DNA of 64,000 bases, taken from an uncultured delta proteobacterium (GTDB lineage Bacteria; Desulfobacterota; Syntrophorhabdia; Syntrophorhabdales; WCHB1-27). The stretch is taken from assembly GCA_963768735.1 (NCBI GenBank), contig CAVYJH010000008.1:26314-90313 (forward strand), written 5' to 3'. The position numbers and the translations under genes were made by a program. The notes beneath the pieces were generated by a model. It did not search any database. It was not told where the DNA came from and was given only the letters and a program-made list of their open reading frames with translations. The stretch's first letter is position 1. Every line of letters starts with the position of its first letter. Below are positions 11,023 through 39,656 of the stretch, piece by piece.

Positions 11023-11062
11023 TTATAATTCCTGCTGCCCCTTCTATCTGTATCTTTCCCCG

Positions 11063-11244
11063 CAATTGTTGGGGCTCAGCGCCCCCTCCAGCGGCAGAGC
11101 CGCATGGAGCCTTCCCCCTCATCTCGCTTCGCTCGGTCAATTGTTGGGGCTCAGCGCCCCCTCCAGCGGCAGAGCCGCATCGGGGCACCCGCTTGCGGGT
11201 CGTTCCCCCTCATCTCGCTTCGCTCGGTCAATTGTTGGGGCTCA
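11063..11244 (+). repeat. two tandem copies plus a 16-nt stub of a ~75-91-bp repeat element (family also at 19986, 39579)
   Basis: Copy A is 11063..11137, copy B is 11138..11228, the stub is 11229..11244. Conserved ends are CAATTGTTGGGGCTCAGCGCCCCCTCCA and CCCCCTCATCTCGCTTCGCTCGGT. The middle is variable but always forms a hairpin. Confidence 0.8.
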
Positions 11245-11298
11245 ACTCAAAACTCAACACGCAAAACTCAACACTGCCGTTCAGTGCCTATTCCCCTT

Positions 11299-12396
11299 CT
11301 ATCTGTATCTTTCCCCTCTTATGAATTCTTCAACCATCCTTCGTGCGATGTCGTCGGGAAACTGATGTATTGGGTGCTTCATTGTGTAGCCGGATATCGA
11401 TTCGAGCACGCCGCCCACCCCGCGGTCATGGGCGACCCCGCAGCACCTTATGGCGTCTATGACACATCCGCCGCTGTTGGGCGAATCCTCAACTGAGAGG
11501 CGCATCTCAAGGTTGATGGGGATGTCTCCGAATATCCTCCCCTCCATTCGCAGAAAACAGACCTTGTTGTCACACTGCCAGGGGACATAGTCAGACGGAC
11601 CGATATGAATGTTCTCGGGGTCGATGGGCCTGTCGAGCAGGGATTGAACGGCTTCCGTTTTTGATATCTTCTTTGACAAAAGCCTGTCCCTGTTCAACAT
11701 ATTCAGGAAATCGGTATTCCCCCCGGTGTTCAATTGGTACGTCCTGTCGATGGTCACACCCCTGTCGTTAAACAGCTTCGCCAGGGTCCGGTGGATGATG
11801 GTAGCCCCCACCTGTGATTTGACGTCGTCCCCTACCACCGGGATCTTCTTCTCCTCGAACATGGCAACCCACCCCTCGTCAGACCCAATGAAGACGGGGA
11901 TACAGTTTATCAGGCCTGTGCCGGCTTCGAGACAGCATCTGGCATAAAACCTGGCCGCCTCCTCCGAGCCGACGGGGAGATAGTTTATCAGGACCTCGAC
12001 CCCTCGGTCCTTCAACGTTCTGACCACATCGTCGGGCCGCTTATCGGCAAGGACGAACCTGCGGTCCTCCGGATAATCGGCCATGTGGGGAGAAATACCG
12101 TCGAGGGGATTTCCCATGGAAACCGTGAACCCGCCGTCGCAGAGACCGGAGGTGATCCGCTTCGTGCAATTCGGCGGAGCGAAGATCGCTTCATGAAACG
12201 GTCTGCCCACCTTTCTCCTGTCTATATCAAAGGCGGCCACTATCTTGATGTCTCCGGCAGTATATCCACATATTTCACGGTGCATCAAACCGGCGGGGAG
12301 CTCCTCTGCCTTTGTTCCGGCATAATAGTCGATGCCCTGCGCGAGGGCGCTCGCACAATTCCCCACCCCAACAATCCCTACTCGAATTTCCCGCAT
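11299..12396 (-). CDS. myo-inositol-1-phosphate synthase
   Basis: 365 aa: IRVGIVGVGNCASALAQGI ... PVGSEEA ... VVGDDVKSQVGATI ... NTGGNTDF. Confidence 0.88.
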   Translation of the reverse strand: MREIRVGIVGVGNCASALAQGIDYYAGTKAEELPAGLMHREICGYTAGDIKIVAAFDIDRRKVGRPFHEAIFAPPNCTKRITSGLCDGGFTVSMGNPLDGISPHMADYPEDRRFVLADKRPDDVVRTLKDRGVEVLINYLPVGSEEAARFYARCCLEAGTGLINCIPVFIGSDEGWVAMFEEKKIPVVGDDVKSQVGATIIHRTLAKLFNDRGVTIDRTYQLNTGGNTDFLNMLNRDRLLSKKISKTEAVQSLLDRPIDPENIHIGPSDYVPWQCDNKVCFLRMEGRIFGDIPINLEMRLSVEDSPNSGGCVIDAIRCCGVAHDRGVGGVLESISGYTMKHPIHQFPDDIARRMVEEFIRGERYR

Positions 12397-19450: not shown

Positions 19451-19894
19451 ATGAGATTCGTGTGTGATGTGATGCTGGGGAAACTGGCGAAATACCTGCG
19501 TATCCTGGGGTTCGACACGGTCTGTGCCCAAACGCCCGCCGCCCTAGAGCACTACCGCGCGCATGATGGCGACCGTATCCTGCTCACGCGGCGAAAAGCG
19601 CCTTCCGGCTTCGCGAAGACGGTTCGCATCGACTCGGAGCGCGCATCAGAGCAACTCCTGGAGATTAAGGCGCTGCTGAAGCCCTTTATCTCAGACGGCG
19701 CGCTATTCGGCAGGTGCATAAAATGCAACGTGGAATTGGCCGAGGCGGACAAGGCGGACATCGAGCCCCTCGTCCCCGAGTTTGTCTATCACCATTACAG
19801 CCGCTTCAAGATGTGCCCCTCCTGCAGGAGGGTCTACTGGGAGGGGTCGCACACGACGGGCATGACCGGCCTCCTCAAGGAGGTGCTTTCCTGA
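19451..19894 (+). CDS. Mut7-C RNase domain (DUF82) protein
   Basis: 147 aa: [23 protein letters not shown] ... C-terminal zinc ribbon CIKCN ... CPSC. Confidence 0.75.
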
Positions 19895-19914
19895 TCCCGT
19901 TCCCTTTCAAAGAA

Positions 19915-20619
19915 GTGGTCGAACGGCTTAAAGAGTTCTATAAGTCCGACGTCCCCGTTGTCACGAGGATCGCCGCCAACAGCAGACGAGCGAAGCGAGA
20001 TGAGGGGGGAGACTCCGCGAGCTTGCTCGTGGAGGGGGCGCTGAGCCCCAATAAGCGACCCGACCCCTTTCTCGTGCTCATCGGCTGCCTTCTCAGCCTG
20101 AGAACAAAAGACGAGACAACGGACAAGGCCATGGAGCGCCTCATGGAAAGGGCCCGCACGCCGGAGGAATTGCTGTCGATCCCCACGGAGGAGGTCGAAA
20201 AGATCATCTATCCGGTAGGATTTTACAAAGTGAAGTCGCGCCTTATCAAAGAGATCAGCCGCACCGTCATCGAAAAATACCACAACACCGTGCCCGATAC
20301 CCTGGACGAGCTGCTCACCATCAAGGGCATAGGCCGAAAAACGGCCAATATAGTGATCACCGAGGGCTTCGGGTTGGCAGGTGTAGCAGTCGACACCCAC
20401 GTCCACCGCATCTCTAACAGGCTGGGCGCGGTGAAGACAAAGACGCCCGATGAAACGGAGATGGCACTGCGGCGGATCCTGCCGCAGGAGTACTGGAGGG
20501 AGTATAATCCGCTGCTGGTGACGCATGGGAGAAGGACGTGCAATCCCATATCGCCGTGGTGCAGCAAGTGCCCGGTCTATGACCTCTGCGGGCGGATGGG
20601 CGTCACGCGTTCGCGCTAG
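19915..20619 (+). CDS. nth: endonuclease III (carries an in-frame repeat-element insertion near the N-terminus)
   Basis: HhH-GPD core [15 protein letters not shown] ... VDTHVHR and Fe-S cluster loop [20 protein letters not shown] 19915 is the first canonical start after the upstream stop. Confidence 0.85.
19986..20051 (-). repeat. copy of the repeat element, inverted, inside the nth reading frame
   Basis: CGAGCGAAGCGAGATGAGGGGGG ... hairpin CGAGCTTGCTCG ... GGAGGGGGCGCTGAGCCCCA. This is the reverse complement of the 11063 family. Confidence 0.75.
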
Positions 20620-20949: not shown

Positions 20950-21987
20950 CTAAATCCAAAACTGATGAAGGATTTCCCATTTTTTAATTCCGAGGTCAGG
21001 CATACGATCGAATGTTGGGAACCTACCATCAAATACATCCGCGTTATAATTGACGGCTTCGTTAATCTCATTACGAGTCTTCTCAGAAAGTCCATACCAC
21101 CATGAAGGCTTGACAGCCAAATTTTCCAAACGAGTTGTGCACATCCACACCAATCTGCATGTAAGATTATTTGTTGTTACGAGATCTTCAATAAAACGAG
21201 TAGGTGCTTTGGCCTCATCATCGAAAAATGAAAGTAAAACAAAGATACCCGAATTATCAGGAATGACTGACACAAATAGATTTTGCATATTACAGTCAAA
21301 ATCAGTGTAATTCTGAAGCGACTCTCCATTAGAGAGATAATCCGGGAAAAAAGAACCAGCACATGCAATCACTGGAGAACTATTAGAATGGATGACGTAG
21401 GACTGCAGTCTCCCGTAATCGCCGTGAGTGATATATGCTTCAAATTTATTCTTGAAGGCTATTGCGTCTGACATTCCTTGGTACATTGAGGCTTTTGCTA
21501 TCTCAAGTTCTGGAGATAGCCTATATTCCTTGTCGCTTGAGAGACCTTGAAGTTCTGCTATTTGATTTGCATCAAGAAAGGCGTCTATCTGACAACCCTT
21601 AAAATAATACTCCCGGCATGCGCACCTATAAGCCTGCATAAAAAGTTGCTCTGGGGTTGCCATAAATGGTGACTGGTCTAAAGATTTAAATAGATTCTGG
21701 TCATGCTGATTGCAGAATCCTGGGAAAGCCAGTGCTTCATTAATACTGGTACTTTTGAAATGTAATAGCTTATTCTCCAATGTTGAGAAAAGGTTCATAT
21801 TACGAACCAACACGTGATTATTCTCAGCGATCAAACAAAGACTCTTGGTCTTAGATATTGTGTGCGACCTGCCTATTTCTCCGCTACACTCTCCCACTGC
21901 AAGACAAATTGGTCTTCTATGAAGGTTCCGCAACCGCTTCATATGCTTTTCTACTAATTTTGCTTTTTCTGCGCTGAAGGGTTTCAT
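20950..21987 (-). CDS. hypothetical 345-aa protein (Cys/His motifs; no family recognised)
   Basis: Long ORF in a visibly AT-rich segment. Motifs: CLAVGECSGEIGRSHTISK and GFCNQHDQNLF. No TM segment or signal peptide. Confidence 0.7.
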   Translation of the reverse strand: MKPFSAEKAKLVEKHMKRLRNLHRRPICLAVGECSGEIGRSHTISKTKSLCLIAENNHVLVRNMNLFSTLENKLLHFKSTSINEALAFPGFCNQHDQNLFKSLDQSPFMATPEQLFMQAYRCACREYYFKGCQIDAFLDANQIAELQGLSSDKEYRLSPELEIAKASMYQGMSDAIAFKNKFEAYITHGDYGRLQSYVIHSNSSPVIACAGSFFPDYLSNGESLQNYTDFDCNMQNLFVSVIPDNSGIFVLLSFFDDEAKAPTRFIEDLVTTNNLTCRLVWMCTTRLENLAVKPSWWYGLSEKTRNEINEAVNYNADVFDGRFPTFDRMPDLGIKKWEILHQFWI

Positions 21988-29101: not shown

Positions 29102-32100
29102 TTACCAACTGAACGAGAAACCCCCGTTCACTGTCGTCTGCGTACCGTCGTAAGCAAAACCGGTTTTCATCCGTATGCGGTCGCTGATTTGGGCCGCTAA
29201 CCCTACCGCAAGAGCCCTTTCGCCCATATAGGTACCTCCCCCTATGCCCATGGAGAACCTCTTTCCGGGACCGGGATCGGGAATGCCGGCGAGGGCCGCG
29301 GCCGACGCAACACCGCTATAGGCCTTCACCAACTGCCGGTAGTTTACCGCATCGTAAGGATTCGTGCCGTCGGCAATCCCCGTGACGCGTGCCGGACCCT
29401 GGGTCGCATCGTTGCGAAAAGTGGCTCCGTTGTCGTTCAGGATCAGCGAGGTAGACCTTGTGCCGCCGCTCAGCGTTGCGGCCTGGGTATTCACCGTGAG
29501 CCCATGGGATTCCTGGGTAGTGGGGTTGAGCACGGTAACGGAAACATTGTCAGGCTGGACGTTCAATTGACTGTGGTTTGCGGCGGTAGATCCACTTCCG
29601 TTGGCGACGATGTTCACCGTGTTGCTGGCACCATTCACGGTGACCCCGCTGTTATTTACCACGATTCCCGATGACGAAGTCGGGTTGGCACTGGTCAAAT
29701 AGCCATTCACCGCGAGGTCTCCGTCCACGTACATACGGCCGGTGACGATAACGCCGTATGGGACGGTCGTCGTCGCACCGTTCTTGTTCGTGTAGTATTG
29801 ATCGTTGCTCACGGTGATGCTGTTCTGCACGGGGTGATCTGTATAAGAAACGCTGCTGTAGCCCTGGCTGGCTAACGTAATACTGCTCGCGCTCATAGCA
29901 AGCGTGGGACCGCTGTTGACATTTAAGGTACTATTGATCGTGGTGGGACCGTTCAAGGTGGTTGCGCCCGTGACTTGAAGCCCGCCGTTGAGGTTGGTCG
30001 GGCCCGTAACCGCGAAGGTGCCTCCTTTCACAGTGACGCCTCCGTTCAAGGTGGTTGCGCCCGCCACAGCGAACGTGCCCCCCACCGTGGCGTTATTGGC
30101 AATACTTGCTGAATTGAGGGTGGCAAGACCCGAGGTGCTCAGCGTTGAAAGGCTCGTGTTGCCGGTAACGGCAAGGTTACCCCCCACCGTAGCATCATTA
30201 ATGATGCTCGCAGAATTCAGCGTCGCAAGACCGGAGGTAGTTAAGGTCGAGAGGCTCGTGTTGCCGGTGACGGCAAGGGTGCCGCCTACTGTTTCGTTAT
30301 TCGTGATACTTGCCGAATTGAGGGTGGCAAGACCCGAAGTGCTCAGGGTCGAGAGGCTGGTGTTGCCGGTGACGGCAAGGGTGCCGCCTACTGTTTCGTT
30401 GTTGGTAATACTTGCCGAATTGAGGGTGGCAAGACCCGAAGTGCTCAGGGTCGAGAGGCTTGTGTTGCCGGTGACGGCAAGGGTGCCGCTGGTGGAGGTG
30501 TTGCCCGTGGCGTTGTCCACGGTAAAAACGTTGGAGGTTCCATTGTTGACTGCAAGAGCTCCTCCCTGTATGGTAGCACCACCGTTCAGATTGGTAGCGC
30601 CTGTGACGGCCAGGGTGCCCCCCAGGTTTGTCGCCCCCGTCACACCCAGTGTGCCCCCTACCGTGGCGCTATTGGTAATACTTGCCGAATTGAGGGTGGC
30701 AAGGCCTGAGGTGCTCAGTGTCGAGAGGCTGGTGTTGCCGGTGACACCCAGTGTGCCCCCTACCGTGGCATTGTTGGTAACGCTTACGGAATTTAACGTC
30801 GCAAGACCTGAGGTGCTCAGGGTAGTAAGGCTTGTGTTGCCGGTGACGGCAAGGGTGCCGCTGGTGGAGGTGTTGCCCGTGGCGTTGTCCACGGTAAAAA
30901 CGTTGGAGGTTCCATTGTTGACTGCAAGAGCTCCTCCCTGTATGGTAGCACCACCGTTCAGATTGGTAGCGCCTGTGACGGCCAGGGTGCCCCCCAAGTT
31001 TGTCGCCCCAGTCACACCCAGCGTCCCGCCTACCGTGGCGTTATTCGTAATGCCTGCGGAATTCAACGTCGCAAGGCCTGAGGTACTTAGGGTCGAGAGA
31101 TTCGTGTTGCCGGTGACGGCAAGCGTGCCGCTGGTAGAGGTGTTGCCCGTGGCGTTGTCCACGGTAAATACGTTGTAAACTCCGTTGTTGACTGCGAGGG
31201 CCCCGCCTTTCACGGTAGCACCGCCGTTCAGATTGGCGGCACCCGTCACCCCAAGTGTGCCCCCCACCGTGGCGTTATTGGTGATACTTGCAGAGTTCAG
31301 GGTGGCAAGACCCGAGGTGCTCACGGTCGAGAGATTCGTATTGCCGGTCACACCCAGTGTGCCCCCTACCGTTTCGTTATTCGTAATGCCTGCGGAATTC
31401 AACGTCGCAAGGCCCGAGGTGCTCAGGGTAGTAAGAGTGGTGTTGCCGGTAACACCCAAGGTGCCCCCCAGGTTTGTCGCCCCGGTCACCCCCAGTGTGC
31501 CGCCTACTGTGGCGTTGTTGGTAACGCTGGCAGAGTTGAGCGTGGCAAGGCCAGAGGTACTCAGGGTCGAGAGGCTTGTGTTACCTGTGACACCCAGTGT
31601 GCCGCCCACCGTGGCATTATTCGTAATGCCTGCGGAATTCAGGGTGGCAAGACCAGAGGTACTCAGGGTCGAGAGGCTTGTGTTGCCGGTGACGGCAAGG
31701 GTGCCGCTGGTGGAGGTGTTGCCGGTGGCGTTGTCCACGGTAAATACGTTGGAAACTCCGTTGTTGACTGCAAGAGCCCCGCCTTTCACGGTAGCACCGC
31801 CGTTCAGATTAGCAGCCCCGGTCACGCCCAGTGTGCCGCCTACCGTGGCGTTATTGGTGATACTTGCGGAATTCAGGGTAGCAAGGCCAGAGGTACTCAG
31901 TGTCGAGAGGCTGGTGTTGCCGGTAACCCCAAGTGTGCCGCCTACCGTGGCATTGTTGGTAACGCTGGCAGAGTTGAGCGTGGCAAGACCTGAGGTGCTT
32001 AGGGTAGTGAGGCTGGTGTTGCCGGTAACGCCCAAGTGTGCCGCCTACCGTGGCGTTATTGGTGATACTTGCGGAGTTCAGGGTAGCAAGGCCAGAGGTA

Positions 32101-35100
32101 CTCAGTGTCGAGAGGCTGGTGTTGCCGGTAACCCCAAGTGTGCCGCCTACCGTGGCATTGTTGGTAACGCTGGCGGAGTTGAGCGTGGCAAGACCTGAGG
32201 TGCTCAGGGTAGAGAGGCTGGTGTTGCCGGTAACCCCCAGTGTGCCGCCTACCGTGGCATTATTGGTGATACTTGCGGAATTCAGGGTAGCAAGGCCAGA
32301 GGTACTCAGTGTCGAGAGGCTGGTGTTGCCGGTAACCCCAAGTGTGCCGCCTACCGTGGCATTGTTGGTAACGCTGGCGGAGTTAAGCGTGGCAAGACCT
32401 GAGGTGCTCAGGGTTGAGAGGCTGGTGTTGCCCGTCACACCCAGTGTGCCGCCTACCGTGGCATTGTTGGTAATGCTTGCGGAATTCAGGGTGGCAAGAC
32501 CAGAGGTACTCAGGGTCGAGAGGCTTGTGTTGCCGGTGACGGCAAGGGTGCCGCTGGTGGAGGTGTTGCCGGTGGCGTTGTCCACGGTAAATACGTTGGA
32601 AACTCCGTTGTTGACTGCGAGGGCCCCGCCTTTCACGGTAGCACCGCCGTTCAGATTAGCAGCACCCGTGACGGCCAAGGCGCCCCCAAGGTTTGTCGCC
32701 CCCGTCACACCCAGTGTGCCCCCTACCGTGGCGTTATTGGTGATACTTGCGGAGTTCAGGGTGGCAAGGCCTGAGGTGCTCAGGGTTGAGAGGCTCGTGT
32801 TGCCGGTCACCCCAAGCGTGCCCCCTACCGTGGCATTATTGGTGATGCTTGCGGAGTTCAGGGTGGCAAGACCTGAGGTGCTCAGGGTCGAGAGGCTCGT
32901 GTTGCCGGTCACACCCAGCGTCCCGCCTACCGTGGCGTTGTTGGTGATACTTGCGGAGTTCAGGGTGGCAAGGCCTGAGGTGCTCAGGGTCGAGAGATTC
33001 GTATTGCCGGTGACCCCCAGTGTGCCTCCTACCGTGGCGTTATTGGTGATACTTGCAGAATTGAGCGTGGCAAGACCTGAGGTACTCAGTGTTGAGAGGC
33101 TTGTGTTGCCCGTCACACCCAGTGTGCCGCCCACCGTTTCGTTATTCGTAATGCCTGCGGAATTCAACGTCGCAAGGCCAGAGGTACCTAGGGTAGTGAG
33201 GCTGGTGTTGCCGGTCACACCCAGCGTCCCGCCTACCGTGGCGTTGTTGGTGATACTTGCGGAGTTCAGGGTGGCAAGGCCTGAGGTGCTCAGGGTCGAG
33301 AGATTCGTATTGCCGGTGACCCCCAGTGTGCCTCCTACCGTGGCGTTATTGGTGATACTTGCAGAATTGAGCGTGGCTGCACCGTTTGTCGTGAGCGTAT
33401 CCGTGGTGATATTGCCCGTATTCGAGATGCCGTTCGTTGTGGTAGCGCCCGTGACGCCCAGGGTGCCCCCCAAGTTTGTCGCCCCAGTCACACCAAGTGT
33501 GCCCCCTACCGTTTCGTTATTCGTAATGCCTGCGGAATTCAACGTCGCAAGACCCGAGGTGCTCAGGGTCGAGAGGCTCGTATTGCCGGTCACACCCAGT
33601 GTGCCCCCTACCGTGGCGTTATTGGTGATACTTGCGGAATTGAGGGTGGCTGCACCGTTTGTCGTGAGCGTATCCGTGGTGATATTGCCCGTATTCGAGA
33701 TGCCGTTCGTTGTGGTAGCGCCCGTGACGCCCAGTGTGCCGCCGACTGTGGTGTTGCCCGTTGCGTTGTCCACGCTGAATACATTGGAGGTTCCGTTGCT
33801 GACGGCAAGAGGTGCTCCCTGTATGACAGCACCGCCGTTCAGATTGGCGGCACCCGTGACGCCCAGGGTGCCCCCCAAGTTTGTCGCCCCAGTCACACCC
33901 AGCGTCCCGCCTACCGTGGCGTTGTTGGTGATACTTGCGGAGTTCAGGGTGGCAAGGCCTGAGGTGCTCAGGGTCGAGAGATTCGTATTGCCGGTGACCC
34001 CCAGTGTGCCTCCTACCGTGGCGTTATTGGTAATACTTGCAGAATTGAGCGTGGCTGCACCGTTTGTCGTGAGCGTATCCGTGGTGATATTGCCCGTATT
34101 CGAGATGCCGTTCGTTGTGGTAGCGCCCGTGACGCCCAGTGTGCCGCCGACTGTGGTGTTGCCCGTTGCGTTGTCCACGCTGAATACATTGGAGGTTCCG
34201 TTGCTGACGGCAAGAGGTGCTCCCTGTATGACAGCACCGCCGTTCAGATTGGTAGCGCCCGTGACGCCCAGTGTGCCCCCCAAGTTTGTCGCCCCAGTCA
34301 CACCAAGTGTGCCCCCTACCGTGGCGTTGTTGGTGATACTTGCGGAGTTCAGGGTGGCAAGGCCTGAGGTGCTCAGGGTCGAGAGATTCGTATTGCCGGT
34401 GACCCCCAGTGTGCCTCCTACCGTGGCGTTATTGGTAATACTTGCAGAATTGAGCGTGGCTGCACCGTTTGTCGTGAGCGTATCCGTGGTGATATTGCCC
34501 GTATTCGAGATGCCGTTCGTTGTGGTAGCGCCCGTGACGCCCAGTGTGCCGCCGACTGTGGTGTTGCCCGTTGCGTTGTCCACGCTGAATACATTGGAGG
34601 TTCCGTTGCTGACGGCAAGAGGTGCTCCCTGTATGACAGCACCGCCGTTCAGATTGGCGGCACCCGTGACGCCCAGTGTGCCCCCCAAGTTTGTCGCCCC
34701 AGTCACACCAAGTGTGCCCCCTACCGTGGCGTTGTTGGTGATACTTGCGGAGTTCAGGGTGGCAAGGCCTGAGGTGCTCAGGGTCGAGAGATTCGTATTG
34801 CCGGTGACCCCCAGTGTGCCTCCTACCGTGGCGTTATTGGTAATACTTGCAGAATTGAGCGTGGCTGCACCGTTTGTCGTGAGCGTATCCGTGGTGATAT
34901 TGCCCGTATTCGAGATGCCGTTCGTTGTGGTAGCGCCCGTGACGCCCAGTGTGCCGCCGACTGTGGTGTTGCCCGTTGCGTTGTCCACGCTGAATACATT
35001 GGAGGTTCCGTTGCTGACGGCAAGAGGTGCTCCCTGTATGACAGCACCGCCGTTCAGATTGGCGGCACCCGTGACGCCCAGGGTGCCCCCTACCGTGGCG

Positions 35101-35285
35101 TTATTGGTGATACTTGCAGAATTGAGCGTGGCTGCACCGTTTGTCGTGAGCGTATCCGTGGTGATATTGCCCGTATTGATGATGCCGTTCGTCACCGTTT
35201 GCGACCGAACAATTTGAGCAAACGTGCTCACCAGTATGAGAGCTGCGCAAATCGCTGCAAGGCTCCTCACACCCTTTCTCCTCAT
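29102..35285 (-). CDS. trimeric autotransporter adhesin (~2060 aa), interrupted by a 1-nt insertion near 32030..32040
   Basis: Signal peptide MRRKGVRSLAAICAALILVSTFA. There are many tens of 34-aa NATVGGTLGVTGNTSLSTLSTSGLATLNSASITN repeats. C-terminal YadA-type anchor: NYRQL ... AAALAGIP ... GGFSFSW. The span is 6184 nt (3n+1), and the ORF track splits it into 31851..35285 and 29102..32035. Confidence 0.85.
33600..35195 (-). repeat. ~4 near-identical tandem copies of a 405-bp (135-aa) higher-order repeat inside the adhesin gene
   Basis: Four out-of-frame 74-aa ORFs recur at exactly 405-nt spacing (33608, 34013, 34418, 34823). The protein block GGAVIQGAPLAVSNGTSNVFSVDNATGNTTVGG recurs every 135 aa. 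Boundaries are approximate. Confidence 0.8.
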
Positions 35286-39578: not shown

Positions 39579-39656
39579 ATTGACCGAGCGAAGCGAGCTG
39601 AGCGGGGAGGCTCGACAGGCTATGCCCGTCGAGGGGGCGCTGAGCCCCATTAATTG
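39579..39656 (-). repeat. copy of the repeat element between the FeS and NrfD genes
   Basis: ATTGACCGAGCGAAGCGAGCTGAGCGGGGAGG ... hairpin ... CGAGGGGGCGCTGAGCCCCATTAATTG. This is the reverse complement of the 11063 family. Confidence 0.75.

Follow-up and report, generated by a model that had tools for sequence, protein, structure and literature searches.

The gene for endonuclease III (nth), counted from its ancestral start position, occupies positions 19894..20619 on the forward strand of the 64,000-nucleotide stretch of uncultured desulfobacterotal DNA analyzed in the present study (the window), and its identification draws on Pfam and PDB matches, fold similarity and comparison of starts. 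The protein is an HhH-GPD enzyme with a helix-hairpin-helix (PF00730, E 1.5e-24; PF00633, E 1.3e-08), it matches EndoIII entries in PDB with E values of about 1e-47 to 1e-31, and its model resembles the EndoIII folds 1P59 (TM 0.80) and 2ABK (TM 0.79). The catalytic Lys (GxGRKTA), the catalytic Asp (VDTH) and the C-X6-C-X2-C-X5-C cluster ligands are intact and fall in invariant columns of the alignment, identifying the protein as Nth. Immediately upstream is a Mut7-C RNase-domain gene (19451..19894, forward strand, taken from the list of open reading frames; PF01927, E 4.8e-35), whose TGA stop (19892-19894) overlaps the ancestral nth start site. One database protein of 364 aa (P0039, ENA) contains Mut7-C and Nth in a single chain (PF01927 plus PF00730), either as a real fusion or through a frameshift at the overlapping stop and start. 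Downstream of nth there is a 345-aa open reading frame (20950-21987, reverse strand) with no Pfam match. A related contig described below carries a KwaB-annotated gene of 345 aa in the same place (L141:1383-2420); equivalence of the two was considered and rejected because the proteins are unrelated, and the presence of unrelated 345-aa genes at one position makes the spot adjoining nth look like a variable island. A second Nth-family paralogue, 35% identical, lies at G000:C3:594697-595221 and is present in nearly all relatives.

When the nth DNA was aligned with the orthologues of six congeners, one clean gap of 75 columns opened opposite the window sequence. The extra DNA amounts to 75 nt or 25 codons (19978-20052, forward strand, with a register ambiguous by about 2 nt), its gap coincides with a copy of a repeat, and protein alignments and model confidence delimit the same segment. 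It is placed after ..VVTRIAA, which corresponds to linker 1 of Nth. Within it lies an intact repeat core of 63 nt (19987..20049, forward strand), running from CGAGCGAAGCGAG to GGGGCGCTGAGCCCC and delimited by the family alignment and a conservation test, which is identical to the end modules of the family at 13/13 and 19/19 positions. The core comprises a GCGAAGC mini-hairpin motif as its left module (19990..19996, from the motif count), a central hairpin CTCCGCGAGC-TT-GCTCGTGGAG (20013..20034, from the covariation count and RNA fold) and a right hairpin GGGGC-GCTGA-GCCCC (20035..20049, from the count of closing pairs among 154 copies), all on the forward strand; the RNA fold of the repeat region has a free energy of -32.8 kcal/mol. 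The preliminary description of this locus had recognized a repeat copy inside nth that leaves the frame unbroken, and both the reading frame and the family match bear this out. Its bounds (about 66 bp or 22 codons, 19986-20051) fell short of the full size of the extra DNA in the congener alignment. It had also called the copy inverted relative to others at 11063 and 39579, which holds for the tandem copies at 11063..11245 (reverse strand) and fails for the intergenic copy at 39585..39648 (forward strand), which has the same orientation as the copy in nth.

The repeat family is large and structured. The 19-nt right module, GGAGGGGGYGCTGARCCCC, occurs 147-154 times at 89 loci of the 4.34-Mb assembly, as against 0-2 occurrences in reversed-sequence controls, so the match in nth is far beyond chance, and 72 copies carry both end modules. 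Units measure 63-66 nt, except in a long variant of about 80 nt that has an additional GACCCGCAAGCGGGT hairpin, and each is followed by an A/T-rich linker of 6-12 nt. A unit is built from a GCGNAGC mini-hairpin, a GGGGY-GCTGA-RCCCC hairpin and, between them, a central hairpin whose sequence varies. The left module reads GCGNAGC in 66 of the 72 full copies, a motif known to form an extraordinarily stable DNA mini-hairpin (PMC13037366). Among 37 distinct copies, 97.9% of hairpin cells were paired, compared with 40-52% in slid controls, and changes on both sides of a pair were found in 73 cells, compared with 26 in shuffles and with none of 500 shuffles reaching 73. In the central hairpin both sides had changed at 6 of 10 pairs, such that the sequence varies between copies and the pairing is kept, and the closing pair of the right hairpin was C-G in 88, T-A in 62 and mismatched in 4 of the 154 copies. 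The element is thus structured, with strong covariation backing two of its hairpins.

Every one of the seven genomes of the genus carries the repeat family, as do three more genera of the same taxonomic family (four genera in total). Two genera of that taxonomic family lack it, and so does the remainder of the order except for one variant array. That array, in another family of the order (G029:C19:408791-409577), has nine variant right modules, GGAGGGGGTGTTGAACCCC, spaced at 93-99 nt, and is the only occurrence outside the repeat-bearing clade. No Rfam family was matched by the whole window at gathering thresholds or by the tandem copies at E up to 1, and a literature search found no description of this family in Syntrophorhabdus-like bacteria. 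Within the window, sequence comparison resolves the tandem copies at 11063..11245 into a short unit, a long unit and a stub; together with a tail of AAAACTCAACAC x2 they are bracketed by a 24-nt direct repeat (11039-11062 and 11293-11316), unlike a short transposase target duplication. The copy at 39585..39648 sits in an operon gap and is shared with the congener G001 (G001:C16:8370-9069), where the flanks are 87% identical and 11 of 64 positions of the copy differ, mostly as compensatory changes in the central stem. The orthologous copy keeps both end modules, and the compensatory changes of the central stem appear as CGACAGGC/GCCCGTCG against CCATGAGC/GCTCATGG. Elsewhere in the genome there are head-to-tail arrays of near-identical 70-nt units, nine at G000:C3:1168800-1169378 and six at C6:425157-425525, which create long spurious open reading frames.

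The preliminary description had proposed aligning Nth orthologues from related genomes to see whether the segment is a lineage-specific insertion coinciding with the repeat. This proved to be the case. The segment was not found in the orthologues of the six congeners or of 34 further relatives (40 related genomes), nor in 42 aligned homologues, and the homologues without it number in the thousands; the relatives read ..RIA(A/N)xx(H/R)DPF.. at the site with nothing between. The orthologues of those 40 genomes align to the window protein from residues 31-49 onward, most of them from 42-49, and the alignment of solved homologues begins at the DPF motif; bacterial enzymes have 27-31 residues before DPF, as against 49-56 in the window protein. 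Among the best 120 database proteins, only two carry the insert: P0002 (JGI 3300041809) and P0003 (ENA ERZ27256877), both of 241 aa, with the same 25-residue insert, an intact ATG and a beginning MPFPFKE... Their proteins are 94% identical to the window Nth and their genes 88.7-88.9% identical in DNA, with collinear flanks around the insert. The gene of the nearest species representative, G006, which is free of the insert, is 87.3% identical to that of the window; the three insert-bearing genes are joined by the insert and by only five shared derived substitutions, the window, P0002/P0003 and G006 being nearly equidistant. Because an identical insert occurs in independent assemblies that have diverged by about 11%, the insertion predates that divergence, which is of the order expected for speciation, and is not an assembly artefact. 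A very recent insertion, suggested by the undegraded state of the copy, was considered and is refuted by the two insert-bearing sister assemblies.

These patterns indicate that a small, non-autonomous structured repeat element inserted once into nth, later than the split from G006, in a common ancestor of the window lineage and two others that are represented by metagenome contigs alone. It landed in the codons of linker 1, the connector between the N-terminal helices, which form part of the [4Fe-4S] cluster domain, and the six-helix barrel. The 75-nt piece lies in the only stop-free frame of its forward orientation and adds 25 residues; with that length and that frame no frameshift results. 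We consider it very probable that a single ancient in-frame insertion in linker 1 is now translated as a disordered loop of an enzyme under purifying selection. An alternative explanation could be that the segment is no insertion at all and is instead an ancestral part of Nth lost elsewhere, or an artefact that repeats produced during assembly. Such artefacts are a general risk of metagenome assemblies, but nothing more specific speaks for this reading, and it would have to account for the absence of the segment from every other homologue examined, for end modules identical to those of a 154-copy family and for the presence of the insert in three independent assemblies with collinear nth flanks. 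It is therefore exceedingly improbable.

Evidence for translation comes from the pattern of substitution. Over the whole gene, the window and its sister sequences differ by 54-55 synonymous and 14-16 non-synonymous codons, and over the 28 codons before the insert by 9 synonymous and 1-2 non-synonymous, one of the latter being the start codon. Comparison of the coding sequences thus indicates that the N-terminal segment and the core have both been under purifying selection since the insertion. Since the segments on both sides are selected as protein, the insert between them must be read through in frame. The preliminary description had argued that the insert must be translated if the gene is functional, which the intact ATG of two assemblies and the purifying selection on both sides support. 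The inserted residues would then be made as a disordered surface loop while the enzyme stays under purifying selection. It is also conceivable in principle that the insert is removed after transcription or translation, like an intron or intein, and that the mature enzyme is normal. The stable fold of the insert and the unusual conservation of its DNA would fit such a process, yet a self-splicing intron or an intein would need far more than 75 nt, Rfam, introns included, gave no match, and the frame is open in all in-frame copies, which would not be needed if they were spliced. We regard removal as scarcely credible.

Translation of the insert as part of the protein agrees with what is predicted of its structure. 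An AlphaFold model of the window Nth, built with 43 sequences, had a mean pLDDT of 84.9, with most of the core above 90, the C-terminal end at 62-83, the N-terminal helices at 82-87 and residues 34-53, which belong to the insert, below 50. The model therefore predicts that the insert is a disordered surface loop. A surface loop was what the preliminary description had suggested looking for by structure modelling, and its placement of the insert between the N-terminal helix and the conserved block is also confirmed, the position being linker 1. In solved Nth structures the N-terminal helix belongs to the [4Fe-4S] cluster domain. Linker 1 shows little conservation and varies in length, with an extension of 11 residues in human NTHL1 that gives an open, flexible enzyme and whose shortening lowered activity (PMC8682792). 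The human extension lies at the same position, between the cluster domain and the six-helix bundle, and represents natural length variation in which a longer linker is compatible with activity; in contrast to the 25 residues gained by the window Nth in one step from a repeat element, it is not repeat-derived. Given the variability of linker 1 and the human extension, a long insertion at this hinge was plausibly tolerated. By analogy with the human enzyme the insert may loosen domain closure, and the insert-bearing Nth is probably still active, the longer linker changing only the flexibility between domains. The three insert-bearing genes provide a natural experiment, in which linker 1 is longer by 25 residues; in human NTHL1 this hinge governs how the domains open.

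The start of the gene in the window lineage is a separate matter, which the preliminary description had passed over. The first codon of nth (19894-19896) is ATG in the six congeners and in both sister sequences and is ATC in the window. This may be a real loss of the start codon or a consensus error; if real, the ancestral ATG would have become ATC after the insertion, in the window lineage. The Shine-Dalgarno sequence AAGGAGGT (19877..19884, forward strand; duplex with the anti-Shine-Dalgarno sequence -12.7 kcal/mol) is conserved in congeners and intact in the window, 6 nt before CTG 19891 and 9 nt before ATC 19894. Reading on in frame, the first canonical start to appear is GTG 19915, and it lacks a Shine-Dalgarno sequence. 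With no canonical start at the conserved position and none of this support for GTG 19915, expression in this genome may be low or lost. Translation would begin inefficiently, either at one of the near-cognate codons CTG 19891 and ATC 19894, which the intact Shine-Dalgarno sequence precedes, or at GTG 19915; low-level initiation at the near-cognate codons is probably the most likely outcome, with some uncertainty.

It is possible, then, that the window nth is poorly expressed or is a young pseudogene, in which ATG became ATC after a tolerated insertion while the second Nth paralogue covers the function. The ATG was lost in the window only, the six congeners and both insert-bearing sisters having kept it; the next canonical start is unsupported; and since an Nth paralogue is found in nearly all relatives, loss of nth function could be tolerated. 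On the other hand, the window's own branch, polarized with four outgroups, has 19 synonymous and 5 non-synonymous changes, and no stop or frameshift was found on it. The strong Shine-Dalgarno sequence remains intact at 6-9 nt from the two near-cognate codons, G014 and G016 use the codon at the CTG position as their start (GTG or TTG), and the single ATC base may be an error. We consider decay of the gene unlikely on this balance, although it is the foremost alternative among those weighed here. A further reading is that the insert itself supplies a new internal start, with GAGGGGGGAG as the Shine-Dalgarno sequence for TTG 20023 or GTG 20029, producing an Nth without its N-terminal helices and leaving most of the insert as untranslated leader. 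The duplex of GAGGGGGGAG is strong (-11.6 kcal/mol), it is positioned about 11 nt before TTG 20023, and the ancestral ATG is lost in the window. The preliminary description had placed the next in-frame Met well inside the core, which is correct for ATG 20131 (codon 80) and leaves out these TTG and GTG codons inside the insert. However, purifying selection acts on the 28 N-terminal codons in each of the three insert-bearing lineages, two of which keep ATG; TTG 20023 lies in the loop and GTG 20029 in the stem of the 10-bp central hairpin; and the N-terminal helix is part of the cluster domain in solved structures, so internal initiation is very improbable. Full-length translation through the insert remains the preferred reading.

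The copy in nth is unusually conserved as DNA. Of the 726 sites of the three insert-bearing genes (the window gene, L141:402-1127 and L142:88-813), 95 are variable (13%), none of them in the 63-nt core (window 19987-20049), which is identical at 63/63 positions and falls within the gene's longest invariant run, of 69 nt. None of 539 other 63-nt intervals was without a variable site, the mean being 8.0, and conservation of the core, also at synonymous positions, exceeds that of the catalytic motifs. The intergenic copy at 39585..39648, by contrast, has changed at the 11 of 64 positions mentioned above relative to G001. The frozen core may be due to a pairing constraint acting jointly with the requirement for an unbroken frame. 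Alternatively, the repeat may be under nucleotide-level selection of its own, even within a coding region, rather than inert selfish DNA; the identical core, the restriction of stem changes across the family to compensatory ones and the retention of GCGNAGC, a single-strand DNA mini-hairpin, point in this direction, and we put the idea forward tentatively, as possible though rather doubtful. If it is true, the elements would be structured DNA or RNA sites used by the host or recognized by some machinery, and an overlapping structural code would be present in nth, MutS2 and other genes.

There were further in-frame copies in the genome. A gene for MutS2 (G000:C13:66220-67071) contains 84 nt of the repeat in frame and in the opposite orientation, in the stretch that joins the SH3-like MSSS domain to the C-terminal Smr domain. 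The congener G001 shares this copy, which has lost its left module, both the frame and the Smr domain being preserved, and on sequence comparison it offers a second line of evidence for a translated in-frame repeat. Two others are confined to this genome: a copy flanked by TAAAT direct repeats adds 63 nt to an alpha/beta hydrolase (C14:75455-76141), and another adds 60 nt near the N-terminus of a NodT-type outer-membrane protein (C3:1343569-1344531). The NodT gene appears frameshifted in its C-terminal half. Altogether 18 long open reading frames span a repeat, among which, besides nth, only these three were confirmed against relatives; most of the remainder were rejected by eye as shadow frames of GC-rich DNA or as cases in which the element lies upstream of the true start. 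As read off the consensus, one forward frame of the element and each of its three reverse frames are free of stop codons, and every one of these four frames is seen in use. With four open frames, roughly two in nine random intragenic insertions would keep the frame open. The in-gene copies make up about 4 of the 89 loci, all at loops or linkers, which fits survival of tolerable insertions rather than targeting of genes.

The closest parallel is with the Rickettsia palindromic elements (RPE), which, according to the summary in PMC10969869 of the work of Ogata et al. 2000, 2002, are palindromic repeats lying in frame in housekeeping genes. Both are small palindromic families found in frame in unrelated housekeeping genes, translated at surface or linker positions and kept in the orthologues of related species; here such in-frame copies occur in nth (three lineages), MutS2 (two species), the hydrolase and the NodT protein. 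The host sets the two families apart, RPE being known from an obligate intracellular alphaproteobacterium and the present repeat from a free-living anaerobic member of the Desulfobacterota, whose MAG is Syntrophorhabdales/Syntrophales-like. In addition, the RPE unit is longer (about 100-150 nt, compared with 63-85 nt), nearly half of the copies of some RPE families are in genes, far above the share found here, and tandem arrays of up to 9 units are common here, unlike RPE. The case of nth is functionally the RPE situation, for which in-frame repeat insertion is already known, in a repeat family that is itself undescribed. The preliminary description was right that in-frame colonization is known for Rickettsia and went too far in calling it otherwise uncommon, because in-frame fusions by intragenic MITEs are "not unusual", with RPEs the extreme case (PMC10969869; see also PMC5896051). 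Such MITEs (intragenic ERIC, Coxiella QMITE1, Anabaena; PMC10969869, PMC5896051, PMC2229807) share with the present repeat their small size, their non-autonomous nature and an occasional position in frame within open reading frames, but the present repeat has no identified terminal inverted repeats or parent IS, and one locus has the 24-nt duplication rather than a short target duplication.

Resemblance to REP, BIME and REPIN elements with their RAYT transposases (PMC3733652) extends to short G+C-rich hairpin repeats that are mostly extragenic, in tandem or close pairs after genes and in operons, with tens to hundreds per genome in a restricted lineage. The present repeat differs in its longer unit, its three hairpins and its hypervariable central stem with compensatory changes, and it has neither the conserved GTAG/CGTC head nor a RAYT (Y1) gene flanked by repeats; GTAG occurs only within a GCGTAGC variant, in 9-10 of 72 copies. 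No link between the family and a transposase was found: the ten PF01797 (Y1_Tnp) matches of the genome have no repeat module within 2.5 kb, and across 41 genomes Y1 genes do not follow the repeat, being present in repeat-free genera and missing from some repeat-bearing genomes. Mobilization by RAYT/IS200 was rejected for these two reasons, the lack of a Y1 gene near repeats and the lack of co-distribution. The ends of the element as delimited here (CGAGCGAAGCGAG... and ...GCTGAGCCCCAAT), which may differ from its true termini, are not evidently complementary. Short A/T-rich direct repeats flank some copies and not others, TAAAT at the hydrolase, ATAAC at C10:87719 and AAYA at nth, and the insertion site in nth, ..GCCAAC|AAG.., is similar to CCCCAAYAA, the tail of the element itself.

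The findings have several implications. RPE-like in-frame colonization of housekeeping genes is not confined to reduced intracellular genomes and extends to a free-living uncultured anaerobe, and here comparative evidence indicates that the inserted peptide is translated and retained under selection. The family also combines unusually clear structural covariation with a very strong conservation of its in-gene copy. For gene callers and annotators, inserts of this kind or a missing ATG should not be treated as errors by default and are worth checking first. Finally, the window contains at 30005-35132 a very large block of direct repeats with a period of 102 nt (also 204, 372 and 405 nt), which is probably a giant repetitive protein gene.
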